Shown here piece after piece: positions 1-62,957 of a stretch of 64,000 nucleotides of DNA. The notes under the pieces are model-generated. The model was not told the DNA's origin and did no database searches. It saw only the letters and a list, made by a program, of their open reading frames with translations. The translations under genes and the position numbers were made by a program. This DNA comes from Moniliella sp. 'wahieum' (Eukaryota), in NCBI GenBank assembly GCA_003971905.1, contig RSEE01000049.1, forward strand, positions 248,001 through 312,000, written 5' to 3'. The first letter of the stretch is position 1. The number at the start of each line of letters is the position of its first letter.

Positions 1-42
1 TGCCGTTGTGGCGCCAACGTCTACATGCGGGTGCCAATGACC

Positions 43-72
43 ATGATGCATGATGCATGATGCATGACGTCA
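43..72. repeat. Palindromic heptamer array (ATGCAT-G)x3 ending in TGACGTCA
   Basis: ATGCAT at 46-51, 53-58 and 60-65, each separated by a single G. Confidence 0.85.
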
Positions 73-2878: not shown

Positions 2879-3202
2879 GGTGTCGGTGGTGGCCGAGACG
2901 GGTGCTGTGGCATGGGTGGATGGGAGAGGGCGGGACAAAGGCGAAAGGAGATGCCGGTGTGTGGATCGAGCGGCAAGACTGCGGTTCCAACCTGCTCGTA
3001 CCAGGGAGAGGGTCTGCCTAGGACAGCGTTTAGTAACCGCGCACAGGATCCAGCCAGAGCCAAGACGGAGTCACACGGAGTATAACAAGTACTGCTGCAA
3101 CTGAGGGTCAATCTCTTTCATCCGGCGTCGTCTGGCTCGCACGGGGATTGGATATTCAGCCTGAATGCCTCGGCGCCAGCCAGCCCAACCCCACGGTGTG
3201 TG

Positions 3203-3226
3203 ACTAGTGACTAGTGACTAGTGACT
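3203..3226. repeat. Palindromic heptamer array (ACTAGT-G)x3
   Basis: ACTAGT at 3203, 3210 and 3217, separated by G. Confidence 0.85.
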
Positions 3227-21224: not shown

Positions 21225-21280
21225 AGATCTAAGATCTACGAAGCGTGCGCGCTGGCGACGCGTGACGCGTGACGCGTGAC
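21225..21280. repeat. Palindromic heptamer arrays (AGATCT-A)x2 and (ACGCGT-G)x3
   Basis: AGATCT at 21225 and 21232; ACGCGT at 21258, 21265 and 21272. Confidence 0.85.
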
Positions 21281-23930: not shown

Positions 23931-25854
23931 TCATTGAAGAAGGCATGTGACCACCTCCTCCAACCGCGCCATCCCAATATATTGCGTGCAGGGAGCGATG
24001 TTGGTGTGACCCCGCTCGGCATAAGCGCTAAGCGCTAAGCCAGATGGCGTACACCCCATCCCTCGTAGTGCTCCCTTCTGAGTCTTCCTTCCACTTGGCG
24101 ATATATGACAATGGCATGCGGATGATTTCGATGATTAATACCGTAATGATTAGCCCGGTGTTCGTTTTTGACCGCTGTAGCAGGAACCGCCTGAGAGGCA
24201 GCGACCCTATATATGGCTACCAGCCCCCCCAATAGGAGGCGAGGCCGCAGGCCCTGAGTTCCTACTAGTTATGAGTGTACTCTTTGAGTGGGTGCAGGTT
24301 GCAACAGACAAACGGTCTGGTCCATGTCGTGCTCCTCGACTACATGATGCTTGAGCTTGAGGCCGAGGCTAGCTCTTGACCTTAAGCTCAAGTAGCATGA
24401 GCGCATGAGCGCCCCGAGCGCATGAGCCTGATGGGCCTGATATATCTGAATGGACTTCCCGAGCGCCCAAAGCCATAAGGCTGTCGCCGAAATCCTCAAT
24501 ACACTTGCCTACTGCCCCGTCATACGTCACGCGTCACTAGCCCCGTGTCAATGTCATGCATGAATCAGGCCCGTGTATCACATGCTGTCACACATTACAT
24601 CGTACAAGCCGCGGCTATCACACACGCCGTCCCATGTCCCAGCAGACGGAATGGGCTGTGGCCCAGCGGCGATTCCAGGTACCTGGGCTGCTTCCCCACA
24701 TCCTGCAGTCGATCACCTTCTTGTTCCGGCCTGCCGCCCGCGTTCCTGGCCAGCAGAGGCTCCTGGGTCCTGCCTGCCTTGCCACTCATTACACTCGGAC
24801 TGTGGCCGGCTGAGGCCTTGCCGGTGCTTGTGACCCCGCTTGGTGATATTGATATCCGAAGGATGGTGGCTTCAGCATGCAAAAAGAGGGGCTAGTACGA
24901 TGGCCACAAGTCTTGCATAGGCGCACCGCAACAATGGCCGCTCTTGCCGAGAGGGTGCCAACGATTGAAGAGCCTCAGCCAGCGCTGAGCATGCTGAGCG
25001 CAGCGCTAACACGTATGTCTCTCCTGCGAATCTCAGATCTCACACACTTCCTAACTAAACTGACAGGCTGAGGTGCGCTGCGCCGCGCGGCTCAAAATCG
25101 AGAGCCGCGAAGTGTGGCCAGCAGTGTATACGCGAGGGATCGCACTGACTGTCACATCGCAGATCGTACTACAAGCAGCGAACGATTTCTTCCAGTTATA
25201 CAGATGGAGGCGACTGTGGTAGTGACACGTAGTAATGCCTAATGAAATGGCCCTTTCTCTTTCTCCATGGTGCATGGATCCCCTTCCTCCACTGTGCCAT
25301 GGATTCTTCCATCAATATATCAGCAAGGGATTACTATTGGCTGGCTGTTCCCTCAGAACCCAATGCTTCTTACCAACAAACCCTGTTGTCGCACTAGACG
25401 CTCTATTTCGTTGAGCCGGCCGGCACATTATATAGATGCACAGATCTCGGGCATGAGAGCGGTCTTGCTTTTGGCACAACTGTGCGAGCCCGAACGGCCG
25501 AGCTTCTCCGGCAGCCGATCCATCAGGGATTCTGGGCTGCGAAATAGGAGAAGCAGGATGGCGCATGGAATTATGTAGGTACACAGACAGTAGCTGCATA
25601 GTGGATCCACAACACACCGTGCGGCGTTTGTCAACAAAGGTACACATGTGTAACTGAGCAGCTCGCGCTCACTAACGCTCTGGTATCATAGATCACTAGT
25701 GCCGATCCCTGATGCCGATACCGCCGCAATTGGGTCACATGCCAGCCGAAGGCACCTACTGCCCTTCTGCCATCGTGTGCCGTGAAGAAAGATTTGGGAT
25801 TTCATGCCTTCATGACTGTGGCTTTCTTAGTTCTGTCCCAACAAGTATACCCTC

Positions 25855-28830: not shown

Positions 28831-29872
28831 AGGAAGCTGGACCGAAATCCTGCATCTATTCTACTCTGACCACAATGGTCAATGATCGTTGTGTGGTCCC
28901 CGGGGCTCTCGCCATGCCTTCAACTTGTAGTCTCGCCGACTGTGTGGCCGAAGAGTGTGTGGCGACGTGACGCATGGTTTTTGAGATATGGTGACGCGTC
29001 CATGGCAGGGCGTTAATGCTACCGGTCAACTGGTAACTCGTAAACGGGAATCTCGAGTGCGCCCCTTAGGCCTTACGAGATATAGATGTCGCCTTTCAGA
29101 CCACCGCGACCACAACGACCAGATTGATCCTGAATGCAGAAGCTCTCTTGAGCTTGCTTGAAGTTCAAGCGCTTGATCTTGACCTTTGGAGGCTTGGAAC
29201 TTGACGTTTGCTGCCAAAGGTATATGTTGAAGCTTGAATATCGAATGCCCATTCGGCACCTGAGCGGCCCGAGCAGCCTCATCAGGAAGACCCCCAATAT
29301 GGTATGCATGATATATGTATCAGTGTTAAGGCATGTGTTCACAGTACGTTTAGTTTAAGCCGAACTGTGATCTTATGATAACAACAGTAGCTCTCCTTAG
29401 TATCGTTGAATTATACTTTCTCCCCCAGAAGAAAAAAAGCATGATGACGATGACACATCTAATGAGTCGAAACACCCTATAAAGGTCCCGGGTAGTCCCG
29501 AGAGAGAAACTCTCCACTCGGAGCACTGAGGACTGTGTACCTCCATGCCAGTCGCGCCTCACGCGGCGCCAGGGCCCAAAAACCCCTGTTTTGCATGTAA
29601 CCGCCGGAGGGAGGGGGTCTGTCCTAAGGCTTAGACTTATGGCCTAATGCGTAATGCGTAATGGCTCTTCCTATGTGGAAGACAGAAAGCAGAAAGAGTG
29701 CGGCCTGGTACAGCGCGTATAAGCCCGATATCGGAGAACAGGAAACCGATGCTGCCCCCTATGGATTAAACTGTGCGTCGTTAGTCATTTTGTCGAGAGT
29801 CATTTAACCTTTTAACACCGCACCTAGTTTTGCTGGCGTGAGAGCTGGGAATGCACAGGTGTCACATATACC

Positions 29873-30000
29873 AAGCTTCAAGCTTCAAGCTTCAAGCTCT
29901 TAGGCTTCAAAAGCTTGAAGACCACACTCATACTCAGTACTCAACCGTTGAGTGTTCAACCTGAGTCTGAGTACACTGAGTACTGAGTCTGAGCACTGAA
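29873..30000. repeat. Palindromic heptamer array (AAGCTT-C)x3-4 followed by AGTACT/CTGAG degenerate units
   Basis: AAGCTT at 29873, 29880 and 29887; downstream tactcagtactc and ctgagtactgag. Confidence 0.8.
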
Positions 30001-33800: not shown

Positions 33801-34866
33801 GAGTCTGCCGCCGAGGAGCCCACTCCCGCTGAGCCTGAGGTGAAGGAGGCCGCTCCCGCCGAGCCTGCCGCTGAGGAGCCCACTCCCGCTGAGCCTGAGG
33901 TGAAGGAGGCCGCTCCCGCCGAGCCTGCCGCTGAGGAGCCCGCTTCCGTCGCGCCCGCTGTGGAAGAGCCGGTTGCTACCGTGGAGCCCACTCTCGCCGA
34001 GCCTGCCGCCGAGGAGCCCACTCCCGCTGAGCCTGAGGTGAAGGAGGCCGCTCCCGCCGAGCCTGCCGCTGAGGAGCCCGCTTCCGTCGCGCCCGCTGTG
34101 GAAGAGCCGGTGCTACCGTGGAGCCCACTCTCGCAGAGCCTGCCGCCGAGGAGCCCACTTCTGTCGCGCCCGCTGTGGAGGAGCCGGTTGCTGCCGTGGA
34201 GCCCACTCTCGCCGAGTCTGCCGCCGAGGAGCCCACTCCCGCTGAGCCTGAGGTGAAGGAGGCCGCTCCCGCCGAGCCTGCCGCTGAGGAGCCCACTCCC
34301 GCTGAGCCTGAGGTGAAGGAGGCCGCTCCCGCCGAGCCTGCCGCTGAGGAGCCCGCTTCCGTCGCGCCCGCTGTGGAAGAGCCGGTTGCTACCGTGGAAC
34401 CCACTCCCGTCGAGCCTGAGGTGAAGGAGGCCGCTCCCGCGGAGCCTGCCGCCGAGGAGCCCACTCCCGCTGAGCCTGAGGTGAAGGAGGCCGCTCCGCC
34501 GAGCCTGCCGCCGAGGAGCCCACTTCTGTCGCGCCCGCTGTGGAAGAGCCGGTTGCTGCCGTGGAGCCCACTCTCGCCGAGCCTGCCGCTGAGGAGCCCA
34601 CTCCCGCTGAGCCTGAGGTGAAGGAGGCCGCTCCCGCCGAGCCTGCCGCTGAGGAGCCCACTCCCGCTGAGCCCACGGTTGAGGAGCCCACTCCTGCTGC
34701 GCCTGTCGCCGAGAAGCCCACTCCCGCTGCGGCCACGGTTCTGGAGTCCGCTCGCGTCGATGCCGCCCCTGAACTGTCCATCTCGGCTGAGCAGGCTCTC
34801 GAGGGCCCCGCCGCCCGTGGTGCGCTTGACGCCTCGCAGCCTGAGCCCACTGCCCCCCATCATTAG
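30809..34866 (+). CDS. Large acidic E/P/A-rich repeat protein (~1300 aa, PEVK-like); frameshifted
   Basis: ATG 30809 (MGIISRIWHR); intron 31284-31359 (GTACGT...ATTAAC...CAG; Q|DHAHPS). Five overlapping ORFs read the same repeat EPTPAEPEVKEAAPAEPAAEEPASVAPAVEEPVATV in successive frames; stop after PTAPHH. Confidence 0.8.
31550..34730 (+). repeat. Coding tandem array of ~30-nt modules forming a ~138-nt higher-order unit
   Basis: Near-identical modules gagcccactcccgctgagcctgaggtgaag / gaggccgctcccgccgagcctgccgctgag / gagcccgcttccgtcgcgcccgctgtggaa / gagccggttgctaccgtg repeated for ~3 kb. Confidence 0.95.
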
Positions 34867-35085
34867 ATGAGTGTGAGTGTGGTATATGTGTGGCCAAGGA
34901 GCCGCTTGACAAGCTGCAGTTGCTCTGAGATCTGATTTACTTCTCCCACTCCCCATGCCTGAACGTTGAACGCTAAGCCTAGGCTTCCGCTTTTGGCTAC
35001 GACCATCCCCCGTACGCCCTGATCTCTGTCCTAGAGACGGTGGATCTACTTCCCCCTTCCCCTTCTCCTTCTGATACCTATCACG

Positions 35086-35157
35086 ATGCCTGATGCCCGT
35101 TGCCTGATGCCCGATGCCTGATGCCCGATGCCTGATGCCCGATGCCTGATGCCCGAT
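35086..35157. repeat. (GATGCCT/GATGCCC) heptamer microsatellite
   Basis: Alternating tgcctga/tgcccga units, about 10 copies. Confidence 0.9.
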
Positions 35158-35450
35158 ATTTTCGCTTGACGTTTGATGCCCAAACGCTTCTTTCTTGGTT
35201 TCTGCCTTCCCTTTCTTCCCCTTCCTGCCTTTCGACGTTTAATGTCCGCCTGCCTGTGGGCTACGATTTGGTTTGTTTTTGCCGCTTGGCCCTTGCCCTT
35301 TGTCCGTGCCCTCTCTTCTCTGCCTTTGGGCGACAAAGGTAATACCTACACCACTTGAACTAACTGGTCGGATAGCAGAGAGGATGGGACCTCAGGAAAG
35401 AACGAGAAACTTCGGTTGGGAGGATCAATGAGAGTGCAAAGGTGGTACAG

Positions 35451-35541
35451 GTGATGGGGGATGGGATGGGATGGGATGGGATGGGATGGGATGGGATGGG
35501 ATGGGATGGGATGGGGTGGGATGGGATGGGATGGGATGGGG
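35451..35541. repeat. (GGATG)n pentanucleotide microsatellite
   Basis: About 16 copies of atggg. Confidence 0.95.
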
Positions 35542-37170: not shown

Positions 37171-38574
37171 CGTGCGTGGGGGGATGGAGTGGTGGTGTTA
37201 GGACAGGCAGCACGACGGAGCTGGGTGGGAAGGGCAGAGCCTGGGCGGAAGCCAGCAAGGCCAGTAAAGTACAGGGTCCACGCGGCAGGGTGTCAGTGTG
37301 GGAAGGACAGGGCGGGCGGTGAGAAAGCAGCGGATGGCAGGGTTGGGTGGAGCGTTGGACGCTGAACGGTGAACGGTGAGAATATTGAGTTGGACGCGAT
37401 AGCGGCGTGGAGGGTGGCGCGGAGGCCTGAGGAGGTTATATCCGTTTCCGCTGGCAACGGTGGTGGGGGTCGTGGAGGTTGGCCTGGTGTTGACGGTGGC
37501 GCCACCCGCGGGAGGGAGGGGGGGTGGCCTGAGGCCTGAGGCCTGGGGCCGGAGGATGATGCCGACGCACGAGGGAGGGTCGGTGGGGGCGAGGAGTTGA
37601 CGTTGGGTTTTGACGAGCGGCGTGACTATCACATGGGCTAGTGATTGCTGGTGTCATTAATCATTCGCCAGCTGGCGCGCAGGCAGGCGTCGCACACACA
37701 GCACAGCGCCTGCTCCAGCCGCACTGGCCCAGTGTGCGTTGGGGGTGAGAAGGCCACACTGCCGCCATGCCCGGCCATGCCGCGGCCGGCATGCAGTCCA
37801 GGCGACTTCCCACGCGCACGGGGGCAGCCGGGGATTGCCGGGGCACGGGGGCTGCTGGCTCGTAAAGCGGTGTGGGCAGCAGCTCGCGTGCGGGGAAGCG
37901 CGGGGAAGCCGGGGCGGCACGCGCTGCCCACCCAGAGCCCGCACGGCGCCAGTGTGGCCCGAGTGGCTGAGACGGCGGACCCGCGTATTACCTGTCGGCG
38001 TTACGTCACCCGCGCCGCCCCGCGCTCTTTTGCCCAGACGCGCGTCTGGCTCAGGCGCGTTGGGCTGGCTGGGCCCTGGTTAAATCAGACTGCCCCATGA
38101 CGTCACAACCCTAATGTTGCACGGCCTACCCCGGGCAGCGCAGTGGTGCGGGGGCATGCATGTCGCCTGTCACCTGTTACGGCTACCTGTTGTCAAGTTT
38201 CAAGTGTCAACATGACAACGCATCAGCTCAACGCTCAACCGTCGTCAGTCGACTTGGGCGCGTCAGCGCGTCGCCTCTTCTCACCTCTGCGGGCCCTCAC
38301 GGCCTCACCGTCGACGCCCAACCAACTCAACAACCACTCTCAGATCTCAACCGTCGAGCTCAACCTTTGGTACTGATGGTGCACACATGCATGACTTGAG
38401 ATCAAAAGCCGGAGGGCGCAGTGGACGTGACTAGTGACTCGTACTATAACACACTGTGAAGCTTGAACCACGTGATGATGCATTAGTCCGTAGCCCCCCG
38501 CACCGCCACAGACGTGTTTTTTTTTCGTGTGTGAAGCAGGTACTCCACGGAGCAATGGACTGGCCAAATTGACC

Positions 38575-38900
38575 AATCACTAGTCACTAGTCTCCATACT
38601 ATAGTCACTAGTCACGAGTCATGGACATGGACTCAGGGACTCTGCCCCTGGGGCCTGAGGCCCTGAGGGCCTCAGGGTACGCAGTACTCGTACTCAGTAT
38701 ACTCGTTGATCTCATCGTGACATTGACAAGAACAAAGGCAACTGGGCCGAGCAACTAGTCACGTTCATCACGTATGAGCTGGTGAGATTGAGATCTATCG
38801 AGAGGATCTGAGATCTCAAAGCCCAGGCCTCACGTGACGCGTGACGCGTGAAGCTTGAAGAGCTTAGAGCCCTTGGAGCTAGCTTGAAGCTTGAAGTTCA
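38575..38900. repeat. Dense cluster of T-N-A-linked palindromes with mixed cores
   Basis: ACTAGT-C-ACTAGT (38579); AGGCCT-C-ACGT-G-ACGCGT-G-ACGCGT-G-AAGCTT-G (38825-38857); agcttgaagcttgaag (38881). Confidence 0.85.
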
Positions 38901-39027
38901 GCGTCACGGCGGTCGCGCCTTCGCTGCTGAGTGGGTACGCAAAGGGCGCACTGGTACGCATCTTCAAACGCATTATCAACAGACCTTGGGACGTTGGGCC
39001 TTAGGCCTTAGATCTTGTTAGACCTCG

Positions 39028-39435
39028 TCCATTTCATGACAGAGCTTAAGGCTGGGACAGGGGGAACGCTACGTCTAAACCTAACCGTTCATCTTGCGGG
39101 GGTTACTTGGAAGCGCCACCAAGATTAAGGGACCAGGGGGATCGCCAGGATATCAGGACCCTCCGGCTCACGCCATCCGGTCCGTACCCTAGGAAGCGCG
39201 TGTGGACACGGAGGAACGTGGTTGACATCCGAGCGAGGAACCATTTCCACTGAGACTTAGTAGCCAATCCTTCCAATGCGCGAACAACTTGCCCGCCGTC
39301 TTGGTGCCGTAGTATCCTCGCGTCGTCAAAACCAGGGGGAAAAACGGCTCTTGAGTGCGTCCTGGTACTTGGCGTCTTGTCGCATTCTGCTTGTTCAAGC
39401 ATCCGAAGAAGCAGCTCCTTCTCCCGGCGTTCCAA
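39028..39435 (-). mobile_element. Diverged copy of the CRE/RLE non-LTR 3' end at 21572-21980
   Basis: Colinear, same-orientation similarity (shared blocks ggctgggacag, ccgttcatcttgcg, tagtatcctcgcgtcgtcaaaacc, gtcgcattctgcttgttc); translation EQAECDK...FFPLVLTTRGYYGTKT...WFLARMS. Confidence 0.7.
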
Positions 39436-40582
39436 GTTAGACCTTATTCGACCTTGGACCTTGGGACCTTGTAGACCAAACTTTTGCCACTTTCGCCCCA
39501 TCTTCCCGCTCCCTCGTCATTCACTCAATCACGAATAATCGTAATCATTAATCACGACGTCACCCAGCTCTGTCTTTACCCAAAGAGGAATGTCCTCGTC
39601 ATTTGTTACGCGTTACGCGTTAAGTACGTTAAGCTTTAAGCTTTAAGGACTGCTAGCGCGGTGATGTGAGAAGAGAGATATGGAACGACCATCCGTCACG
39701 CAAATTTCGAATTCCCTTCTAAGTGCGTTCGTGTTCTTACATCTACATGCTCGTCTCTCTCTGCTCGTTCCAAGATGGATTAGGATATCTCCACTGGGAG
39801 CGGCACTACATCACGCAAGAGCAAACCCGCCTCTACTATATCTATTTTCGGGGTCCTAGCGTTTGACATCTGGGTCGCGTTCGGCCAGCAAGAAGAAGAA
39901 AAGAACAGCAACCAGGAACCAGGAACCAGGGAACAGGAAAAGGGATCCCCGTGCAACCCGGCATCCGGCACGCGACTCGAACGGGAAGAAAGCGGTGCGC
40001 ACGAGAAAAAAGATCGGTGCCAGGTAGAAGGAGTAGAGCTACTGAGCATAGGCAGGGAGTACATTGAGTACGCCGTATGAGGCCAATGAACGTTGAACGT
40101 TGAACCTGAACGCTGAACGGGTGAACAGTGAACGTGCAATGCGCGTGTAAACGGACGTCCTCGAGCGTTTCAAGCTTCAAGGAGGAAGGGATGGGACAGG
40201 GCGTACCGCTCACAGCTTACAAAGGAAAGAGAACCAAGTACTAAGATCCAAGATCCAAGATCAAAGATCAAAACAAAATAAAGAACAGGACTGTATGTGC
40301 GTGGGGGGTGCGAAGGAGGGGTGTGATGGGTAGAGTTGAGACGTGCAAAGTTACCAATGGGGAACGTTTGCCACTCAACCAGCGAGCACGAGGACGGTGG
40401 CATAGACGCAGGCGCCGCAGAGTCCAACGAGCGCACGGGAGGAGGAAGCGTACACGTTGGGCGGAGAGGAAGCGTACACGTTGGGCGGGAGGAAAGCGTA
40501 CACGTTGGGCGGGGAAGTCAGCGTTCAGCTTTTTGCATAGTGGGTGCGAAACTCCATCCTCGCCTCTGCCACCAACATGGAT

Positions 40583-44429: not shown

Positions 44430-45712
44430 GGTGGCAGCTGGCGGGGCAGGGAAGATGCAAGTGATGAAGTAGAGGCGGGCACAGCGGCAGGGATCACAGG
44501 GGGGATCGCAGGTGGGATCGCAGGGGGGGTCGCAGAGAGGGAGGCGCGATAGGTAGGCGAGATAGAATCGCCTCGCGTTTTTGCCTCCGCGCTTCCGCCA
44601 AGCGGTCTTCTTCCCGTTCGTCAAGCCAGTCTTGAGCGGGTTGGCCATTTCAGATAGGTGGACGGGCGGGGGGGGGGGGTTGGCTGGTGGGGAAAACACA
44701 AAAAAGTGTCCTTGCGCTTGCTCGATTTTGGTTTGGGCATTGCGATCTCTGGGCCTTGGATTGTGGCCATGCATTATGCATTACGTCACCGCCACCCATG
44801 TCGCCACCCCCCGCATGTCACATGTGTGTCACAGGTGATGTCACCGGCCAGAAACAGGGTCTCCGTCGATCGTGAAAAAAATAATCACATCGCTCTCCTC
44901 CGTATGTCTGTCCATCGCATAGACATATTCCCGTCGGCATGGGTTCCTCCCCGTATGAAGTCATCATGGGGTGACAAAGAGAGGCAACGCTGTGACTGAT
45001 CCCAAGGCGGACACCGGCCGAGCAAGATAGGCCGACCATTCGTACCAGAGCACATGTGCAAGCCCCCTGCACGCTACAACTACCCCTCCCCTTTCACACA
45101 CACACGCGCCTCCAGACCCCCGCGTGACGCGTGGATCCGACAAAGCTGCAACGAGCTCAGTGCTCAGTGGGAAAGCTGGGAACGACAATTAGGAGCAAAT
45201 ATGGGCTTCATGTGGAAAACCGCTTCATAAAGTAACTGTACAGAGTGATCTGCGTGTGTCGTAAATCCTTAAGCGTAAGGGTGAATGATCAAGGGTGAAG
45301 ACTGAGTGCACTGTGAGTGTTGAGAAAGGTGAAAAAAGCCGGGGAAGGGAGGAAGGAGGTTCGGCGGTGAGGATCACAGCCAGCAATCCTCAGGCAGAAG
45401 GGCTGTTTAAATACCGTATACTGGCAGAACAACGCTTAACAAGAAGAAAGGGGTCTACGGTAGTCATGGAAGACAACGTGTGGCCTGTTCTGTCAAGATC
45501 GCGGTCCGGTGGGCCGCAACAGATAAAGGGTTCTGCCAAGATTGTGAGCGCAGCAGTTACAAAGCTTCGTACTGCAACGTCCGTCTTGGCTCTCCGCGGA
45601 AAGTATTAGCGGCATGTGTAAGTTGTTGCCCATGCTGACTCTTGCTCACGGTTATGGTAGTCTCGTGGGGTACCTCAACTCTCTGGCCTGCTTGCTTTCG
45701 CCATATAGAATA

Positions 45713-46040
45713 CGAGGAGACCACCGGCCCTACGGCCCGGTCAGCTGGGGCTTCGCCCTGGCAGCTTGGTGCTGCGTCGCAGCCGCCACCGTAGCCACCG
45801 TTCCCCCGTCGCCACCTTAGCCACCGTTCCCCCGGTCCACCATTGCCACCTTAGCCACCGTTCCCCCGGTCCCCCGTCGCCACCTTAGCCACCGTTCCCC
45901 CCTTCGCCAGCGTAGTTATAATATCACCGATACGCGCTGGCTGGGGTGGGGGGTGGCTGGCTGCGCCCCCGGTGGCTTACGCAATGCTGATGTAAAAGAG
46001 TGGTGCACACCCCGTTTGGGATTCTAATATAGTATAGAGA
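45713..46040 (-). mobile_element. Non-autonomous Helitron (328 bp)
   Basis: Minus strand begins A|TCTCTATACTATATTAG and ends ACCGGGCCGTAGGGCCGGT hairpin-GGTCTC-CTCG|T. It sits between A and T with no target-site duplication and carries an internal minisatellite. Confidence 0.72.
45783..45905. repeat. Minisatellite gccacc(tt/gt)agccaccgttccccc, ~4 copies
   Basis: Repeated unit inside the Helitron. Confidence 0.85.
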
Positions 46041-47399
46041 TCTCGCCTATACATTCCCTTTGGCTCGACCCAACCTCGATCTATCTTCTCTTTTTTCTCT
46101 TTGTTTCCTTGTCGCTTGGTCAATCTCCCTCTCCTGTCCATACTATGAATGTTTTGATTATGAATTGAATGGCCAAGCCGCCAACCATCGTTCCCATTGC
46201 ATCATCACGGCTCTTGAACACACCTTCTCCTTGTGTGCTAGAGTCTGATCTCGGCCTACTCCTCGACCTGCCTACTTCTCTCTACCGCTTCTACTCCCCC
46301 GCAATGACCTTACTCTGCCGCCCTTTGCCCCTGCCCACGAGAGCCCGGACTACTCGTAGCCAATAAGTGTGATTTTGATACTGTGACATCACGGTAGCTT
46401 GATTCGCTTCTGCCAGCGTGCGCATTCCATTCACGGACCAGCTGTTACTTGTTAGCCTCACAGGATACAGCTATTGGATTAACTTGTCACTTTCGAGCAG
46501 CTATTATACGAAACATGCATCACGCAGAAAACACCATTACAGTGTCATTCTGTTACACAAACTATTAACGAGACGTCTCTCCACTATTGCTCCCTTGGCC
46601 GCCAATATTGACTTGCAGGCGATATCCCGAGAAGAGACTTCGGTGAGAAGTATTGTGCAGCTAAGTGGGGATGGAGGTGGTAAAGTCATAACATTCACTG
46701 CATAGCTCCCACAGGAGCTATGCTCCCATTCGCAAGAGAGAAAAAGAAGAAGATAAGAACACTACTGCTGCAGTGCCACTGGTCGCATGTCACCAGTATA
46801 GCACGCGATTCATCCACACAACAAGAAGCAAGTTGCACTACGGTGCCTTAGCCACATGAAAGGCTCGTTGTAGCGATGGACCGAACGCTTCCTTTCGGCC
46901 TTCGGATTCTTCCACAGGGACACTAGCTTATAATTATAGACCTGAGTCAGCCCCGGATGTGTTTTCGCTATAGGTCTCACCGTTTTGTTCCTCAGCCTGG
47001 ATACTGAGTATGTCGTCCACTGAATAACTATTGGGGTTGGGGCCCTGGCTCTTTTCCTGTTCGCGCCCTAGTAGACCCTGCATAAATGGCATGTAGGCCA
47101 CACCGGTTCCATTGCGTATAACTCTGCCAAGAGGCACCTTTAATTTCGTCAAGATTTCTATGACATAAAGATGGGTACTGTAAAGGTCGGGCGATGCGAG
47201 TGAGACCAAGCGCCGAAGGAAGCAAAAGATGCACTGGTAGAGAGATGAGCAGGATTGGCGTTGAGCAGAGAACTGTGATTAAGTATAAGAGGGCCGTGAC
47301 TGGCAGGTACCACCGGGCCGCTAGTATTTCAGTGAGTTTTGACGCCCTCTGCGCGCCAATACGAGCTAAGCTCGAAGATCCAGCGGGAGAAGAATGAGA

Positions 47400-48400
47400 C
47401 GCAGTCTAGTGACTCAGTGCCGTGGGCAGGTTCCACGCACAAACTACTGTTGAATATGTACCGCAACCGTCAGCAGCTAGGCCGAAGTGTGGGAGCCGCG
47501 GTGAACGAACTCGATCAGCGGGTGACTAACAATATCAATACGAGTGCAGATATTCAGCTGTCGCAAGTTTTCACAAAAGGTTTGTTGACCATCATTTCGT
47601 AACCCTCACGGTGGATGAGGCCAGAAAGCCCGCCGCAGCAATGCGCCTCCGCACCCGTCGTTGTCCCACCGTTGGCAGTGTGAATGCACGACAAATCACC
47701 TTTTGGTGGAACCGTGGACCGGCCCCTCACCTGCCCACTATCACGGGAGGTGGGGTGGCCACGCTCACCCACTGGACCAATCGCGGGAGTGCACAGGAAC
47801 AAACGAATGGACCTCCCCAATTGCAAAAACGGCAGTCTCACATTCTGCATGGCCTGTATGATCCCCCTCAAAGGCTTTATACCGTCGGTATCTATGATCT
47901 CCCCGAAATCCCTGTTGTCTTCCCTATATATGGTTCCACTGAAATCCTTTATTGGTCTGACATTAGTATTGGATATCCCTAGCCACCTTAATATCGTTGA
48001 TAACCGGCAACCCTGTGAACCATCTGTGACTTCCTCGCCGTGGTCATGACTTTTGAAACTCATTGATGTCCCTCCTCTTCGTTATCATTTGTTTTGGGAA
48101 GAGGGCTCCAATTTGAATGCCATTGTAACGATGGCATTGTCCAGTACCAAGCCCCTTCGACTTCTGGCATTGGATCCGATCTTCCGAGACGGAGGACGTG
48201 TCAATGTCAACCCATCTTACATGCCCCGCGTCACTGCTCTGTTCCACGCTACGGCGAGTCGACCAATCCCGACTAATCATTGTTTCCTGTTACGGGCTGA
48301 CATGCATTGGATCTGAGATGGTCTGATCCAAGCTAAGACCCGCCTTCTCTGCACATGTCCAGAAGAGCGCGCTCCGAAGTCCAACCAAAAGTTTGCTGAT
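47400..48400 (+). pseudogene. Highly degraded Pif1-type (Helitron-like) helicase relic
   Basis: Motif remnants in the expected order across frames: VDEA (47611), DKSPFGG (~47700), LPTITGG, HRNKRM, NLN/CNDG, YMPRVT, CFLLR, RPAFSAHVQ..AL. Each match is weak on its own. Confidence 0.4.
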
Positions 48401-48480
48401 CGTTGCTTAAACCATGTACGATGGATGGTCCGAGCGGCCACGCATCCGCGCGACAATAGTCGTCCCCCGCTCAAGTCGAA

Positions 48481-49090
48481 GTCGGTTGACCTACTAAAAG
48501 GGGCCACCAGTTCCCGGTATCATTATGCGACGACTGTCGCCCCGTCACTGCTTACTTTGTCCCTTCTCCTTTGTGCCTGCGGCAACCAACCCCTCTTTTG
48601 ACATACCTTCCTTTCTACACCCCTTTTGCTTCCGTCTTCCCATTTAAATGTAGCCTGTACCCCTGAGGTTGGTGCCAGGGAATCCTTTCCGCAGGCTTGC
48701 ATTCTCGACCCTTCCCGCCTTTCCTGTCCAACAGCTGCCCGTTTAAGCAGCCAGTTGATTCTCTACAGGCAACCTTGTCTTCAGTTAGTTGCCTCCTCGT
48801 CTTTCAACAGCTTGTCTCCACTTAGTTGCCTCCTCGTCTTCCAACTTTGTTTCCCAGCCATTCGCCCAATCGGGTGAGCTTTGCTTTAGTCGCGCCGAAT
48901 TTGCGTACCACAGCTTATCGCATGGGTTCCTTTCTAGCCACGTCATCTGGTGCCGCTGTTGAGCGCCACCTCTGGCAGTGTTTGTCCTTCACTGCCTCTA
49001 CCAGTCTCCAACGCCGGGAGGCCCCAGGCCTTTTACCACACCTTCATCCGGCTCGCACACAGCGTTACCATACGTGCAGCCCCGTCTACC
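48481..49090 (+). repeat. Copy A of a ~600-bp diverged inverted repeat
   Basis: Exact 31-nt match 48575-48605 to revcomp 53735-53765; 16-nt match 48906-48921 to revcomp 53427-53442; colinear weaker similarity between them. Confidence 0.8.
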
Positions 49091-49399
49091 CCTTCTGTTC
49101 AGGAAACAAGTCTCAACCACAACTCAGTCAATGTTTGTGAGGGACAGCATCATGCAGTTCGTCCGTCCCATTGGTGGTCCACCACGCAATATCCTTCTGT
49201 AGCTTCTTGAAGGAGGGGGATCTCTTTAGAGATGCCGATGGTATTCATTCAGGCTGCATGGAATGGAGGATTATTATATACCACTGCAGAGGGAAGAGGA
49301 ATAGCAATCACACGGTACTAATTCAAGGCATCAGTGGGAGAGAGACATACAGGGGTCAAGGCCGATCTAAAACAGGGTCATACGCACACAGCCGGTAGG

Positions 49400-52100
49400 T
49401 ATGTGTGTGTGACCCGTCACTTATAGCACTGTTATGCACAACATGTACTACTAGAGCTCGGTGCAGAGTAAGCCAGCATACCAATCCGTGCGAAAGTGCA
49501 TTTAACACAGTTGAATAATATACGCGCCGCCGAAGTTCTGAAGTCATACATGATAACCCATCGCTCCCATATATTTGCATCCGAGGGTTTAGTACATTCG
49601 CCGACCAGTAGGCGAGTCCCGTCATGAAGGCAAGTATCATTATTCGCCATAGGTCCTAACTACGTCACCAATTTCCATATTCTCCATGCCATTGATGTTT
49701 CTTAAACATCTTCTCACCATACTCACAATGTCTGTGGGTGTCTTCATTGGCATCGCACCACCTGCTGCTGCTGAACACACAGTTGGTTTCCGGTGGGTGA
49801 GGAAATCACTTTGTATCCAGAATCCCTTATGGTAGTAGCTTCATACGAGCCAGTAACAGTTATTGCATCTTTCAATCCAAGCCCAATAGAAACCCAGCTT
49901 TGCGCGCTGACACTCAAGGCTACGCCCAGGGGCTGGTGGCGGACTACATCTTTGAAGATGATTTCCCAACTATAAATGCATCGGAGGCATAATGAAACAT
50001 ACCGTTTAGATTCGGCTTTCTCGAACTCAACAACACGGTATAGTAATCTGCTGAGAGCAGTCGTTCTCCTTATACAGAGCTAAATGTTAGGGTGAAACTA
50101 CTAATGCGGAGAAAGCGGGTGGAGAACCAACTCACTCATCATGCAGCCGCAATGTTGATCCTGACCGTTTAGTGCCAACGTCACTTCCATCATCTCCGAC
50201 CAAGGCGGAAGAGATAACCTATTTGATGCGTGTGCGATCTTTTTCTTCCTGGCGGACGTCCTCATTGGAATGCGTATTGCAAAGAGCCATCAAAACAAGT
50301 ACGTCAGCATGTAATGGTGTTGATTAATCTCTCCAGATGGTGTAATGAACTGCGACGGTAGGCATGAGGAGATAGGGGTGGGAAAAGAGAACGTGTGTCG
50401 AGGGTGGTTAACCAGCTACTCTCTGGTTTCCCATGTCACAATACCACATTATTTGATGGTTACATGCACAACCACGATTCTCAAGGCTCTAACAAGGATA
50501 TAATATCCAAGAAAGACCGCCCGTGGGCAGCGTTCGCTGTTTTTAGGCTTGAGGCATTAACAATTAACGATCCTCGTGATGGCGTACTGATATTACAATT
50601 GCGGGTTCAAGCCAGTTAGGAATGTGATGTTACCTATTCTATATATAGATGCCATACAGGGACTATAGTGACCACCAACTGATCCTGCAACGGTGGATCA
50701 GGGACTAATTGACCATGAAAGGCGCTTATGGCCTAAATGACATAACATAGCTTCTCAGTATACAAGTTCGGGCTGGTGGCATAGTTATACAAATCGAAAC
50801 TTCTGGATTGTACTCCCCCATGTAACTGGTACATCCTGTGAGTTGCGCATTCACAGCAAAGAAACACACTGAAAACGGGTATCCAGATTACAAACATACG
50901 ACAGGAATATGAGAGGTTCGGGTTCAACGAGTTCAGCTGAATTTTCTTCAAACCCTCTTAGGCTTGTGAACAACCCCAAGGAACAAGTTGCTGATAGGGA
51001 TGGTGAAATGTAATCGCTGGTGCATAACCAATGCCATTGTCATTCAGCATTGCGCCCACCCGAGGGCTAACACAAAGGGTGCCGGTGGTGGTATTCTCCT
51101 GTCTGTTGTTACTAGAGTTACTTCTAGCCTTTGTCTCTAACATCGATCAATAAAATGTTGAGGGTCCTTGTAGCTGTGCTCTAATTTCCAAATGGGTGGC
51201 CCGTATCCCTCACTCAAGGTTTCCCTTACCATTAGCCTCATCTGGGCTGCATGTGAGAATGTGCTACTTGCAAATATCTCTGGCATATAAGAGCCCCATG
51301 ATATGCGGCGGCCGCGAGTGTATGCTTTCCGCTTCATTCCTTCTGCACTCAAGACAAGTATTAATCACTTGAGCGGTGGACCATCGGGCATGCGGACAAC
51401 TGGTTGTTTGTTATTGGATAACCGTTAACCCATTTAGCGTCATTGTTCGACGTAAACGTTCTGCATTCGGCAGTTCATCTTTGCACCGTTCTCACATTTT
51501 TGTGACCAATGTATGATGCCCGGGAAATGCGGATAATAAGTTGTCATACGCGTTCCTGAGGTTGCGAGAAGTTGGTCCTTACGCTACATACTATGGGCAC
51601 GCACATTCTTCCCTAGTCGACTGCGGGCAATGCGTACATTTGTGGTATTTATTTGGGCAGAGTGGGACGGATACAAGGAACGTACGAAATAGACATTATT
51701 CCCCTTCATCATGACAATGCGATTATACCACCAAGCGCAACAAGATATTTACAGAAGAATGAACTGACGAGTTTTAGGGTGAAAAGGGCTCACTGCACTC
51801 GTGTCTATCATACTTGGTCATATCCACGTGCGCTACCTTCGGTCTGGAAGTGAATGACGCATGTGGTCTGGAAACTAGAGGAGCATCAGCTTCAGAGACA
51901 TTGCAGAACAGGGACTTAATGCATATCTCACAGGGCGGCACCAAGGGTTCGGCCCGATTAGCTGAATCCAGAGGATAAATGCTGGAGAGGCTTGAGGCGC
52001 CCCTTTTCTGAGAGGACGGACGGTCTTGGATATAACGAACGATGGGGTTGAGGATTACGATATTGACCCGTTGCAATCACTGGGGCAAAAGGACAACGAC
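49400..52100 (-). pseudogene. Possible degraded Helitron Rep/helicase relic
   Basis: Lower-GC, stop-rich region. Remnants CEICIKSLF, YRVVEFEK (cf. Rep Y.VEFQKRG, ~50017-50040) and CLHDGTRLLV (cf. GLCNGTRL.V, ~49603-49632). Confidence 0.3.
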
Positions 52101-53269
52101 AATGCATTTGAATTGAGTGTAAGTCACCGAGGTGGGAGAGACGAGCCGTTTATGGCTCGACTGTGCTGCGTGTGATGGAAACTGTGCCCAACTCACAGCC
52201 CATCCTGTAATTCGTTCCGGGCAGAGTGGTCGCTACGTCGCATGCTATTCCCTAGCCAGTGGACATCCTAGCAGGAAAGATACAATGGCTGCCAGCCCAT
52301 CCTCATCCCCTCCGAAGGAAGAAGCAAGGATTGGTTGGTGTTAAATGAAGCGAAGGACCCAGTTCCGGGAGTCTGTCTGGTTCGGACTGCGTTCAGTCGT
52401 TGTCACAGTACTGCCTTCAGTTATACTTTGTGTCCTCTTCGCTAGGTATAATGAGTAGCGGTAGAGATGCAGGGTTGAGGTACGTCCTCCCCAATAAATG
52501 CTGGATGAAGCGCCTGCTCCTCAAGCCGAGTCGCTTCTCGTCGTCATCGGTATTATGAGGCTGGAATGAAGAGGCAAAAAGCTCTGTTGACGGAGGAAGT
52601 TCAAGTGTGAGTACTTGTCAGCATAATGGAGGAGGTGTGTTGTCCTCTGCCAGTAGTGATGTTGGGCATGAGTGTTTATTGCTGGGTAGCTATTTGGGCA
52701 CGAAGTACGACCTCTTTCTCCCGAGGACGAAGTCTTGATTGAACAAGGAGCACTAGACGTCGTCACCCTTTTCATGAGGGCGGATCGAAAAAAGGGCGTT
52801 GTTGCGAAGAAAGGTGGGGTGGGTCGGGATGGGCACAAGAGGGTCCTGTGGCTTACTGACAATATCGCACTGCTTTCATACTATTTTGTCCCAACTTCAA
52901 TGGCACGCCTTGCTATAGGTGTTGGCCCTTGGAAAATGGTGGCTAGGCCCGTTTGCGTACTACGGCGTAATTCCTATCAGTCGTGTCCTTCCTTCTAAAT
53001 AAGTTTCTGAGGTGCATATACCTCCAGACCGTCTCCCCAGAAGTATCCAATCCAGCTGCTTGCGAGGAGTATATACCTCTCCCCCCACCCAATGGACAGT
53101 AAAAGGGACAAATAGAAGGGGGGGGGGGTGCAGGGAGCCCGCCCGCGTTTATATGGGTTACGATCCCGTAGGAGGCAGCAGGTCTACTCACGGTAGTTTC
53201 GGGCTTGGGCTATAGTTGGTGGATCCGAGCAGAGCTAGGGACGAGGAGAGGCCTTTTTGGGCGCAAAGC

Positions 53270-53857
53270 CGAGGCGGCTGCACGAGTGGCTAGGCTGAGT
53301 ATACATCGGCTTGGGCCGTAGTAATGTATCTGAAGCGTCCGGGGCTTAGGGACGGGAGGAGGCAGTGGAGGACAAACGCTGCCATAGCTGAGACTGGACA
53401 GGGACGGCTGTCGACGTGGAACCCCCGCGATAAGCTGTGGTATGGGAAATCGACGCGGCTGACGGAAGGCTCGCGCGACTGGACGGATGGAGAGCTGGAG
53501 GACGAGGTGGGAAGAGGAGGTGGGAGCTAAGAGAAGAGGAGGCTGCCTGTACTTGAACAATTGGCTGGGAAAAGGGCAGGAGCTAGACAGGATAGGCGGG
53601 AAGGGACGAGAGTGAAGACAAGAAGGACGAGGAGAGACGAAAATGGAATGCGGGGAAAAAGATCCTCTCATCAACCAGGGGTACAAGCTAGATCAAAGGG
53701 GAAACGGATACAAGAGGGGATGTAGAAAGGAAAATATGTCAAAAGAGGGGTTGGTTGCCGCAGGCGTAACAGAGAAGGGAAAGGGAAACGCGGGGACGGA
53801 GGCGACAGTCGTCGCAAAGATACTGACAACTTAGTGGCCTTATTTAGGCCATCCGAC
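53270..53857 (-). repeat. Copy B of the inverted repeat
   Basis: Reverse complement aligns to 48481-49090; both copies carry the hairpin GCGAC-GACT-GTCGC near their outer end. Confidence 0.8.
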
Positions 53858-53973
53858 ATGGACTCAGTGTGGGCGGGGGCCGCCTATTGTCGCGCGGATG
53901 CATGGCCCCTCGGGCCACCGTACCCAATTTATCCATAACCATCATCACACTTGGTTGGACTGCGGAGCGCGCT

Positions 53974-54450
53974 CTACTGGGCATGTACAGGGCAGGCGGG
54001 CCTTAGCTTGGATCGGGCTATCTCGGATCCAACGCGGTCGGTAACAGGAGCAAGTAATATTTTTGCCAAAGACCCTTGATGGAGGGATACTTTGGGGTCT
54101 CGATCTCTAAAAGTGGCAATGACTGCTTTCTTGAAGCTGTGCGCACAAATCTCGGCCTTGGTACCAAAAGTGCGGGGTTCGCCGCCATTATAGATCTGGT
54201 GGGCCTGACATCTATACTCTTGCACGGAGGCGATGAAGTGGTCGACTGTTTCCCGAAAATCTTGTCAATGTCCTCTGTGAGAGACCATGCTCGTCGCAAA
54301 CACGTTTGACTCGGTAAAGCCACATCTCGATGACTGTACTGTTGCGCTTCGTTCCCAAAAAGGTAGGGATATCGTCGACATAAGTGGAGCATCGTAGGTT
54401 CGAGCGTTTCATGATGTCAGGAGCCTCTGAACTAGCTCGGAAAAGCGAAT
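53974..54450 (-). mobile_element. LTR-retrotransposon gag-like relic
   Basis: DDIPTFLGTKRNSTVIEMWLYRVKRVCDEHGLS...SFKKAVIATFRDRD resembles a capsid N-terminal region; no LTRs or pol seen. Confidence 0.4.
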
Positions 54451-54718
54451 TCAAGGAGGTGGTACCCCTCGACTGATAACCCGCCGTTTCAGCTGTTACT
54501 ATCTCTCGAGGCCAAAAAGGGCTCGATTCAATAAGGCCTCCCGTCCATCGGCCATCGATCGATTGGCTATTAGATTGTTTATAAGGAAACAATGATGGAG
54601 AAACAAGCTCGTCGAGTCGTAAAGCGTACACACGTGTAGTAGTGTTGTAAATGTCCGTATCTACAATAGCACTGGGGAAGGAGGGGGGAAGAAGGGTGCG
54701 AGGGAATACCAGCTTAGC

Positions 54719-59614: not shown

Positions 59615-61484
59615 GTGCCTTTTTGCGCAGGGATGGCGAGACTGCCCTCCACCCCCTCGATCCGTCTCGGGGCTTCTGGGGGCTCTGCGGACGAGACACC
59701 ACAAGTCATACATGCCCTATTTTTCACCATCGTCCCGACCCTCCTGGGAGGCGTGATGTCCCCTTAGAGAACTGCGGCCAAGAGGGCCGACGACTAGGCA
59801 GCTCCGTTTGAGCCCGGTACGAGTAGGTCATAGGGATCATGGGGTGCTTGCGGTCTTGAAGGAGGGTCATGCATGCAGTGGAAAACAGCCTGTGAGAGCA
59901 ACAGGGGGGTAAGGAGAGGACACGAAAGAACGAGCGAAGAAGGAAAGGGTTCGCGTAGTGGCAAAAAGGTAGGCGCTGCAAGAAGTTTCTCTTAGGCCTC
60001 GCCTTCCCCAGCTCAGTCGGACCGAGCGTCAGTTTATCATTGGTTGCGTGGAGCCAAGAGTGAGAGAAGAATACAGATTTTGTCCCCACGCAGAAATGTT
60101 GACGGGATGAGCGAACATCGAAACTACCAAGAACGTGCTCGCTCGTCACCGTGGTCGAGTGACCTCCCAGACCCCCCCTACCCCGGAGCAGCGAGTGAGA
60201 GCAATCCGCCACCCGGCCCGCCCGCCGCCTCTTCGTCGCGACTGTGTATCTTCATACTTGCTTCAACGCAAAACGCATTAATCACGCAAGCGCCGGAAGG
60301 AATGGATGGGAGTGCTAGGGATGGGGGAGGACATGTTGGTGTTGATGTTGATGACGCTGGAGCATCCAGGGAGCTGGAGAACGGTGCAAGCGGGGGTAAC
60401 GTGTAACGCGGAATGCGTAACGCGTCGTGAAGGGAGCGTGGATGCTGTGCCATGGCGGTGCCCTGCTGTGCGCCGCTTGGCCTTAGGCCTCAGCCTGAGG
60501 CCTTATACAGCGCGGCTGAGCACGGACGCATGATGCATGCATGATGCGAGCGACCCATGGTGGCACGCAACCAACAACGGGTGATGCTTGGCACGCGTGA
60601 CGCATGACGCAGGAGTGCGTGCAAGGGACCGAGTGACGTCAGAGCCAGAGACAAGATGGGGTACGGAGCACCGGCGCATTGCCTGGCACTGCGTGGCGCT
60701 GAACTGAGTCTCAGTACTCAGCACTCAGTACAGTGTGCTCAGTGCGCACGCACGGACCAACCACGCTTGCGGCCCAGCAGCCATGGTGCACGGGCCAAGC
60801 GGGGCACGGCGACGGTGCAGACGATGAAGCTCCGGCCTGCAACAGCAGGCTACAACAGGCTACAGCGTGGACAGCTGGTCTGTCGGGCACTGCAAGTTGA
60901 ACCCTGGGAGCTATGGAAGGTACTCAAAACGAATGCGGCGATGCTGTGGATGCTGGAACACGTTTCGCTGTGGAGACATGGGTATTAGCCCCGTATAGAA
61001 CGCTATCATGTATCAACCCCTCCTCAAAGAACCTATTCACCCATCCCAACAGTAGACCCCTAGCCCCTAGCCCTCTCCAGCCCTGTATGAAGAGCGTCTC
61101 AACCTTGGGCTCCTTGCCTGCGTGAGAGTGTTGCTGAGTGCTGAATCGGACCGAGAAATTAGATCTCAGATGATGAGATCTCAGATTCACCCAAGCGTCT
61201 TTAGGTCCAACGTCCCTGGGCCGAATGCATGCGCTGTTGTGCGTTGTGCACGCGCAGAACTCAGCCACTCAGCATCGTCTCGTAACGCGTAATATCCATT
61301 ACTTGCCTCCTCGACCTCTCGTCAGCGTCACGAAAGGACGCAACATGGCGCATGACGCGGTGCGAGTCACTGACTAGGGACAGTCCACTAGCCACTAGCC
61401 ACTGGCCACTGGTCCCTCAGCGCCACCTGCTGCTCACAGGTACATTCTGCTACATCCTGCTCTCTCCCCGGGATGTAGGAGCGT

Positions 61485-61516
61485 GCGTGACGCGCGTGAC
61501 GCGCGTGACGCGTGAC
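61485..61516. repeat. T-G-A-linked palindromes ACGCGCGT-G-ACGCGCGT-G-ACGCGT-G
   Basis: Read directly; 9-nt period followed by 7-nt period. Confidence 0.85.
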
Positions 61517-62957
61517 CCACAGGCGGTATGGGATACCGTCGTGGCAGGCAGTGAGTGATCTTGCTCTTGCTTAAAGCTGGAGGGACGTCCGTGCGCAATA
61601 AATACCTCGTTACCAAACGTGACCGTCACCGGGAGCAACATTCGATGCCAAGCGCTGGGCTTAGCGCTACCCAGTCACCGTCGACGTCATGCACGGTCAG
61701 CCAGTCACCTGAGGCCTCACCTGAGGCCTGACCCTCAGGCGGCCTGGAGGCCCAAAACGCATGTTGGGATGCACGGTAGGAAGGAATGTTTGCGCATGGC
61801 TCGTTCCTCCCCCATTCAATCCTCAATACTCGAGTACTCATCGATCCTCGAGCTCATCGCCATCTCCATTGCATATCGGCCGCGTCATGCGCGCCATTCT
61901 ATGAACTGGTTGGGCCACCACAGGGGGAGGGTACACGTCATGCCGAGAGCTCCGATGCACGGGGGCACGGATGCACGGATGCACGGATGTCTTGAGCTGG
62001 CCGTGCATGTCCAACAGTTGGAAAGAAGGTCAGGGACTTCGCGAGTGAAGCTTGAAGCTAGTGGCTTGAAGCGTGAAGGTAGCACGAAGCCTAAGTGAGA
62101 AAAGTGACCTAGTGACCAGAGAGTGGAGAGAGGTGGCGAAGGGAAGCATGAAAGCCCGCACGCTGCCATACGGATAAGTCCGAGAATTCGATGGGCACCA
62201 GGCCAATGTGCGATGCGCCACCAAAGGCATGGCGGACGAGAGGAGCGTGAGGCCTGGGGGAGCCCATCCTTCCCTCGACCTCATCGATCTCATCAGTAGC
62301 CAACTAGTCAATGGCAACGTGGTGGCGGCATGCCAGAGCCGACCAGGACAGGCCGAACCGGCCCCCAGCCAAAAAGCCTATATCATGACCTGGTCCAGCC
62401 TGCGCTTGTCACATGTCACGCGTGATTCATTGGCTGGCTCCGCTCTGTCGTCACGCGTCACGAGTCACGCGTCACGCGTCATCGAGTGAGTTACGCGCTA
62501 CGCTCAGCCAGGACTACCCGCCTGCCCCCCGTCGTCCTCCGCGGCTTCCCCCGCTCCGCCCTCGCGCTGACCTTCGACAGCCTGCTCGGTACTCAGGCCT
62601 CCTCCGGCTCCCCATCCAATCCATTCCCTCCCTGCGTCGCACAGCATCACCCATCACGCACCACCCGCACGCATCCCTCACCCCACCGCGTATGATGTAA
62701 CCCCATCCCATCCATCTCCCCCTCCGCTTCCCCCTGCCAACGTCCGTGCGCCCAGCCGATTGCGTCAGGAAGATCGTCAAGCGCTCTTGCGCGGCCAACG
62801 TGCGACGGGGAACGGCTACCGGCTAACTACGCTCCACGCGCCAACACTGGGCCCGTGCAGCCATTCCGTCGCAGGCCTCAGGGCGCTCTTTACTTTCCCA
62901 ACTGCACAGCCTCCCCCGCCCTCTCCCCCCAGCAGACCGTGCACGAGCCATGGACTG

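Follow-up and report, generated by a model that had tools for sequence, protein, structure and literature searches.

A 64,000-nt stretch of the genome of Moniliella sp. 'wahieum' (GCA_003971905.1, contig RSEE01000049.1, positions 248,001-312,000, forward strand), referred to here as the window, contains arrays of palindromes linked by T-N-A junctions, and these arrays are real and far above chance. At positions 38575-38900, on which the analysis focused, and in many other non-coding parts of the window, they take the form of short repeats of period 7, the unit of which is a 6-bp palindrome that begins with A and ends with T, followed by one base; seen from the junctions, this unit consists of T-N-A and then a 4-bp palindrome. 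With a probability of about one half, we regard the units as scars of a hairpin-forming break, most simply the excision of a cut-and-paste element that cuts with a 7-bp stagger centred on T-N-A, extended by repeated hits and by slippage. No published account of such a heptamer grammar in fungi was found in a full-text literature search, the coverage of which left out most subscription journals, nor did the literature search return any description of the 'heptamer-rich intergenic DNA in smut fungi' that an earlier note on this DNA had mentioned.

Perfect tandem runs of at least two units were found 49 times at period 7, seven times at period 8 and four times at period 9. Of the period-7 runs, 23 had a unit made up of a 6-bp palindrome and one further base, and in 21 of these 23 the palindrome was of the A....T type, the two other cores being GCGCGC and TGGCCA. 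We then classed pairs of palindromic hexamers by their end bases and by the spacer between them (0-6), using 100 dinucleotide-preserving shuffles as the control. Pairs of the type A..T/A..T at spacer 1 occurred 24 times (18 with the same core and six with different cores) against a shuffle mean of 0.5, whereas none of the remaining 111 classes had more than four members and all were close to their shuffle means. Hence, against the controls that the earlier note had proposed (other end bases, and spacers of 0 and 2), only A..T/A..T at spacer 1 was enriched. When scored as a 4-bp palindrome between two T-N-A triplets, the structure was found 57 times with the same N in both triplets (1.8 in shuffles, with a maximum of 5 in 100) and 13 times with different N (6.0 in shuffles). 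Moreover, with the coding repeat at 30300-35300 masked, 55 of the 112 T-N-A pairs with the same N at spacing 4 enclosed a palindrome, as compared to 79/1645 for the other 15 triplet classes pooled. The excess was confined to spacing 4; none was detected at 2, 3, 5, 6 or 8.

The smallest structures measure 12 nt instead of 14 and read T-N-A-a-b / b'a' / T-N-A-a-b. The net product at a T-N-A site is a 7-base insertion that consists of a direct copy of 5 nt and the reverse complement of the two outer bases, with no loop in between. This 5+2 form was present 33 times on the + strand and 34 times as its mirror image, and the next commonest outer letters, C-N-A, gave four of each. Two features of hairpin-type (P-nucleotide) scars are found here: a direct duplication flanks the joint, at the 33 + 34 sites and with the same N far more often than in the shuffles (57 vs 1.8), and a loop-less inverted copy abuts the flank bases, since the spacer is reverse-complementary to the last two bases copied. 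That the same N is kept in the 57 junctions indicates that T-N-A is copied directly and is not inverted. The inverted piece measured 2 nt in 67 of 84 cases, 1 nt in 13, 0 nt in four and 3 or 4 nt in none (outcomes with deletions are invisible to the search), and it invariably lay on the side away from T-N-A.

In the 53 junction chains, the core was matched by the left outer flank only in 19 cases, by the right only in 16, by both in eight and by neither in 10. At least one outer flank thus matches the core in 43/53 chains, with a chance of 1/16 per flank, and 35/53 chains are one-sided 5+2 structures. There are at least 11 cores in the window, 11 being found among the 42 chains with the same N; that so many cores obey a single rule follows from the templating of each core by whichever flank was used, and different cores can be chained in register because a palindrome templated by the left flank of a T-N-A site differs from one templated by its right flank. 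The view put forward earlier, that slippage of one microsatellite cannot yield one junction rule with many cores, is borne out by the 12-nt units (5 direct + 2 inverted) and by the flank-templated cores. On the non-copied side, T-N-A was preceded by G in 17/27 one-sided loci (background 0.29, p = 2e-4), whereas at the mirror position on the copied side G was at background (8/27); the contrast between the two sides is modest. This may mean that the target is extended or asymmetric, or that one of two hairpins tends to win.

All of the arrays listed in the earlier note were recovered at or near the positions given there, including the mixed chain at 38825-38860. The first of them, at 42..67, consists of three units of TGA+TGCA (ATGCAT) templated by the left flank, and the next, at 3200..3226, of three units of TGA+CTAG (ACTAGT) templated by the right flank. 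Between 21221 and 21307, TAA+GATC (AGATCT, 21221-21238) and three units of TGA+CGCG (ACGCGT, 21257-21281) are accompanied by a single TGA+TTAA event. Two units of TAA+GCGC (AGCGCT) at 24022..24040 are templated by the right flank. The array at 29872..29988 has 3.9 copies of TCA+AGCT (AAGCTT, 29872-29898) together with GTAC units (AGTACT, 29934 and 29975), and that at 37526..37545 has 2.9 copies of TGA+GGCC (AGGCCT). Downstream of the focal region there are a left-flank-templated TTA+GGCC (AGGCCT) at 38997..39011, two units of TTA+CGCG followed by two of TTA+AGCT at 39605..39647 (ACGCGT, 39605-39622; AAGCTT, 39629-39647), and a TGA+ACGT array (AACGTT, 40087-40105) that runs into decayed units (ACGC, ACAG) and extends over 40087..40135. 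Finally, junctions with the cores GGCC (60483), GTAC (60711), GATC (61159), CGCG (62449-62481), AGCT and CATG are clustered within 60483..62481.

The focal region illustrates the range of these structures. At 38577..38592, 2.3 copies of TCA+CTAG have a core that is matched by the right outer flank only, and a second TCA+CTAG junction at 38602..38621, in this case templated by the left flank, is followed by a unit with one mismatch (CGAG). A GATC core at 38805..38818 lies between TGA and TCA, the complementary N making a perfect 10-bp palindrome that may be ancestral rather than derived from an event. In the mixed chain at 38825..38863, the palindrome TCACGTGA is followed by two CGCG units (left flank CG) and one AGCT unit (right flank AG). 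The entire chain was regenerated letter for letter when two events on the left flank and one on the right were applied to an ancestor in which 38825-38837 is joined directly to 38859-38863; the initial TCACGTGA is a palindrome that predates the process and is not a product of it. At 38881..38896, two units of TGA+AGCT have a core that is matched by both flanks.

The units also have a later history. In the T-N-A class, cores with one mismatch outnumbered those with two (24 vs 13), whereas in the other classes cores with one mismatch are a minority, which indicates that the units decay by point mutation. In addition, arrays of mutated, non-palindromic units were found (TAA+TGCG, 2.7 copies, at 29645; TGA+GACC at 27917; TGA+ACGG at 37363), which shows that whole units are copied too, either by slippage or by renewed hits. 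Four '(1,1)' sites that we had considered as a third class were dropped; they are mostly edges of mutated arrays (27912, 60711). The heptamer arrays at 40243-40262, 61057-61073 and 61385-61403 combine a 4-bp palindrome with C-N-A or C-C-C instead of T-N-A, and C-N-A is the second commonest class (7/160 runs); these arrays may be T-to-C mutated units that were later expanded, or they may mark a weaker second target. Two further repeats lie outside the T-N-A rule, a 14-bp alternating repeat of two 7-mers that differ by one base (35084-35157, 5.3 copies) and a pentamer array, (GGGAT)16, at 35458-35540.

Could the units have arisen by an error of replication or repair copying, with no dedicated double-strand break? 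A nascent strand might switch template at T-N-A, aided by an odd palindrome with T-N-A as its loop, and the product might then grow by hairpin-assisted slippage. The mutated, non-palindromic arrays at 29645 and 27917 show that slippage operates after the first event, and palindromic arrays are able to self-pair. The gain of whole units from an existing repeat, however, accounts for later array growth only: slippage predicts perfect 14-nt duplications, not the 12-nt one-sided class, and the founder events (35/53 one-sided chains) do not fit. Nor does the 2-nt inverted copy, which abuts its template free of any loop, look like the work of a fold-back primer, which would need one; fold-back priming was rejected on this ground. 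The spacings near 4 show no spectrum of related products. In tandem 7-bp units present in 2-4 copies in non-coding DNA, with mutated units copied whole, the arrays resemble heptanucleotide microsatellites, but slippage leaves unexplained the single rule for at least 11 cores, the 12-nt founder and the requirement for T-N-A.

Heptamer repeats from other DNA bear on the same question. A search of metagenomes with the pattern of a three-unit AAGCTT array yielded 121 loci (587,458 bases), from which the seed core was then dropped. In this pool, T-N-A pairs at spacing 4 enclosed a palindrome in 38/716 cases, as compared to 753/15,056 for the other triplets, which is chance level, so the T-N-A rule is not general to heptamer repeats. 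That 587 kb of foreign DNA with AAGCTT heptamer arrays stays at chance also speaks against a copying error, and we judge that explanation decidedly unlikely. Twelve contigs that are eukaryotic by their Pfam hits showed a weak excess (9/79 vs 59/1721), and multi-core chains like those of the window were present on four independent metagenome contigs (L015, L053, L106 and L109). The T-N-A rule is therefore a strong feature of the Moniliella genome and a faint one of some other eukaryotes, but heptamer repeats in general do not obey it.

The scars are unevenly distributed. Four gene-flanking spacers (16.9 kb, with 796 T-N-A sites) contain 32 scar loci, or about 2 per kb, and no scar locus was found in 17.8 kb of coding DNA. 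The coding set is mostly Pfam-supported, the remainder being the repeat-protein ORF at 30370-34912, which has no Pfam hit; the lack of scars in it is as expected, because insertions of +7 are frameshifts. A gene-less block of lower GC content at 45001..54700 (9.7 kb, with 531 T-N-A sites) also had no scar locus, suggesting either that the process favours accessible DNA beside genes or that it is older than the block. The genes of the window include those for ATG5, RPN6, RPN7, glutamate-cysteine ligase, an HSF-type factor, a DEAD-box helicase and a secretory lipase, the nearest Atlas cluster of which is mostly basidiomycete, and for a 922-aa protein, the best relative of which is only 43% identical to it and carries a fungal PH-domain family. 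Scans of the window with Rfam and for tRNAs gave no hits. The avoidance of coding DNA, the exact, flank-templated and many-sequenced nature of the structures, and the similar chains on the four independent metagenome contigs all make it extremely unlikely that assembly or basecalling created the arrays.

Location in gene-flanking spacers and absence from the gene-less block would also be expected if the palindromes were cis-elements kept by selection, as binding sites for dimeric factors or as a chromatin signal, and some of the cores equal known factor sites (ACGCGT and CACGTG, which we take to be fungal promoter motifs). Arrays of transcription factor sites, however, are expected to have one or a few conserved cores, whereas the 11 cores found here are flank-templated and decaying. 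At least 11 cores obey one rule, each copying whichever two bases adjoin the site, and single mismatches erode the units. The spacer at 59757-63174, which is faced by the 3' ends of both neighbouring long ORFs if the unannotated ORF at 63175-63978 is real, has scars as well. We consider selected cis-elements a very unlikely explanation of the arrays. The earlier note had left the choice between a mutational or repair process and a structural or chromatin signal under selection. The anatomy is best matched by hairpin opening or by footprints of transposon excision at T-N-A, and the mutational option is favoured; the selected signal fits poorly, because point mutations erode the units and every core is a copy of its neighbour, and it is not needed to account for the origin of the arrays.

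How might a hairpin-forming break produce such units? A loop-less inverted copy is the hallmark of a sealed hairpin nicked off-centre, the origin of P nucleotides, and nucleases of the Artemis type open hairpins 2 nt 3' of the tip. If the cut had a 7-bp stagger with N at its centre, a 7-bp target duplication, l2-l1-T-N-A-r1-r2, would result. On departure of the element, each flank would be sealed as a covalently closed hairpin, and a nick 2 nt 3' of the tip of each would give two 4-nt self-complementary 3' overhangs, leaving two recessed strands that each start with T. The overhangs would overlie each other, and one of them would become fixed, giving the joint r1r2r2'r1' or l1'l2'l2l1. With one overhang fixed, the period would stay at 7, left and right products would be equal in number and the T-N-A target would be restored. 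The two predicted joints are exactly the classes found in the window, and in the near-equal proportions found there. Arrays would then be built by repeated hits and later slippage, and hits that use the outer flank would start a new core in register. The agent would be a cut-and-paste transposon or a transposase-derived host nuclease. The possible asymmetry in G (17/27 vs 8/27) is not predicted by a fully symmetric 7-bp model.

Period 7 agrees with a 7-bp duplication of the hAT7 kind, yet identical letters would come from duplicating 5 bp and adding 2 P nucleotides to one side. This second scheme would need both an asymmetric target and asymmetric opening of the hairpins, whereas the transposon targets reported are palindromic (PMC4168063; PMC1131882). 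Several other schemes were rejected. If T-N-A itself were a 3-bp duplication with flank hairpins, the palindromes would centre on the edge of T-N-A, and the form mirrored from the T-N side was found only five times, as coincidences. Retained bases of transposon ends would make the cores element-specific, yet they are flank-templated. With a centred 5-bp duplication, the second flank base could not be copied. Fill-in of a cut made by a type II topoisomerase would leave direct 4-bp duplications.

Among known systems, V(D)J coding joints carry P (palindromic) nucleotides that come from hairpin-sealed ends. What our structures have in common with such joints, and with those of Transib/RAG, is that terminal bases of the flank are present at the joint as an inverted copy with no loop, here of 2 nt; the difference is that the inverted piece is here always on one side and almost always of exactly 2 nt. 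In the targets of hAT transposases, the second base of the duplication is usually T and the last but one is A, and the hAT transposase of Hermes nicks with an offset of 1 nt. Here, in contrast, T and A adjoin the central base, no T-to-A distance in the 7-nt unit fits the hAT target, and the junctions are even 4-bp palindromes instead of the odd-centred ones that a 1-nt offset would predict. An offset of this type was rejected for the same structures, as it predicts 3-nt odd junctions and spacing 3 was at chance (15/69). Transposases of the hAT, Transib, RAG and MULE kinds seal the flanks as hairpins, which are then united by end joining (PMC5499845), and 7-bp-duplicating transposons of basidiomycetes include hAT7, from rust fungi, and Kyakuja (PMC12730594). 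If they are hairpin scars, our structures would share with hAT elements (Ac/Ds) and hAT7 the hairpin-sealed flanks, the end-joining footprints and perhaps, for hAT7, the 7-bp size of the duplication; a hAT transposase gene with short terminal inverted repeats (TIRs) was not encountered within the window.

The 5-nt direct copy recalls the 5-bp duplications made by Transib, but the Transib targets reported are palindromic and GC-rich, for example the symmetric cCASTGg (PMC1131882), whereas T-N-A-a-b is asymmetric and its b is not enriched in A. No transposase of the Transib/RAG kind was seen in the window, and the treatment of fungi in the 2005 paper places Transib in soybean rust only (PMC1131882). 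Galileo, a member of the P superfamily, makes a 7-bp duplication with the palindromic consensus GTANTAC, within a 15-bp palindromic target motif (PMC4168063), and so resembles the 7-bp scheme proposed here in having a duplication that is palindromic around a free central base. It differs in that its centre is A-N-T and not T-N-A, it is an animal element, and no genome-wide tandem scars have been described for it. Excision footprints in rice are, as ours may be, scars of departed DNA transposons across non-coding DNA, but they are heterogeneous, only 8/94 excisions being perfect (the plain duplicated target) and the rest carrying deletions or filler (PMC4423477), whereas here one dominant product is stacked into arrays. 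A possible parallel with the T1 transposon (PMC9942834) was dropped, as the relevant text of that report concerns Tcn12 only. P-nucleotide joints, hAT footprints and 7-bp-duplicating elements are the closest relatives, and none of them is known to be centred on T-N-A, to form an even 4-bp joint or to be stacked into arrays.

A search of 225 translated frames of the window (17 + 99 + 110 ORFs, one of which was scanned twice) with Pfam found none of the transposase, integrase or reverse-transcriptase families, and none of the 2294 pairs of T-N-A-centred 7-mers in the window enclosed an element with TIRs of at least 9 nt. Two further observations argue against a plain transposon. About 2 scar loci per kb of spacer implies very many events, yet no such element was seen in this piece of the genome, and the scars are far more uniform than natural excision scars, although the search sees only outcomes that keep both T-N-A triplets. 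Because the window shows no transposase, no bounded element and one dominant product, we keep as a serious rival, if in itself an unlikely one, an activity encoded by the host with no mobile element involved. Here a domesticated transposase or another site-preferring nuclease would make hairpin-capped breaks at T-N-A in accessible gene-flanking DNA, repaired in one stereotyped way, and the scars would be made by a cellular process, either incidentally or as its product. The anatomy would be the same as in excision, and the lack of an element in the window, the outcome that is unusually uniform when set against the rice excisions (PMC4423477), and the absence of loci at the 531 T-N-A sites of 45001-54700, as compared to 32 loci at 796 gene-flanking sites, are all consistent with it. 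There is also a precedent in a yeast, in which Kat1, a domesticated hAT transposase, makes hairpin-capped breaks (PMC4763223). On the other hand, no candidate gene was seen in the window, and the absence of a transposon from 64 kb says nothing for the whole genome. Next to such a host-encoded nuclease, a copying error without any break and cis-elements under selection are the weaker rivals.

A broader interpretation seems doubtful to us, but it would have consequences if true. The scars could record a very precise process of DNA insertion, without earlier description and acting, now or in the past, genome-wide in this fungal lineage, in which a staggered, hairpin-forming cut of 7 bp centred on T-N-A is made in gene-flanking DNA and repair always adds a 7-base palindromic unit templated by the flank; the enzyme might be a new or domesticated transposase and not an ordinary resident transposon. 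Such a process would be a de novo source of palindromic microsatellites and of palindromic words resembling factor sites beside genes. More generally, if the units are hairpin scars, as we favour, gene-flanking spacer would hold a dense and legible record of a single molecular event, at about 2 loci per kb, and short tandem repeats and palindromic words would be born without slippage. The scars would also point to an enzyme that forms hairpins at a 7-bp target centred on T-N-A, of a kind not so far described from fungi. The rule lets ancestral states be rebuilt, as for 38825-38863, so that comparisons between strains could date and count events directly, and the restriction to gene-flanking DNA could act as a natural map of DNA accessibility.

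The window holds several other repeats. Two copies of a dispersed repeat of about 400 bp (21585-21990 and 39035-39436), 77-90% identical in pieces, both lie within scar-rich spacers; their shared part differs by indels of 1-3 nt only, with none of 7 nt. No Rfam family matched this repeat and no reading frame is common to both copies; a solo LTR, or some other non-coding element present in many copies, is a possible identity. When contigs from two unrelated public sequencing runs were compared with the region, the second copy was matched at about 95-99% and was the most deeply covered part; the matches were confined to this copy (39037-39436) and a few diverged pieces, and none fell on the arrays. 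In the gene-less block, two inverted copies of about 730 bp (48285-49017 and 53339-54049), about 78% alike, enclose 4.3 kb of gene-less DNA of lower GC content; their outer ends begin with identical letters, no target duplication flanks them, and the 110 frames of 45-54.8 kb contained no Pfam family. A long, GC-rich open frame (about 0.70-0.73) at 31500-34900 is built of nested tandem repeats with periods of 30, 78, 138 and 168, and its product, which has no Pfam family, is rich in Pro, Glu and Ala. Lastly, at least eight copies of a 54-bp tandem repeat are found at 63273-63767, within an unannotated open frame on the - strand.
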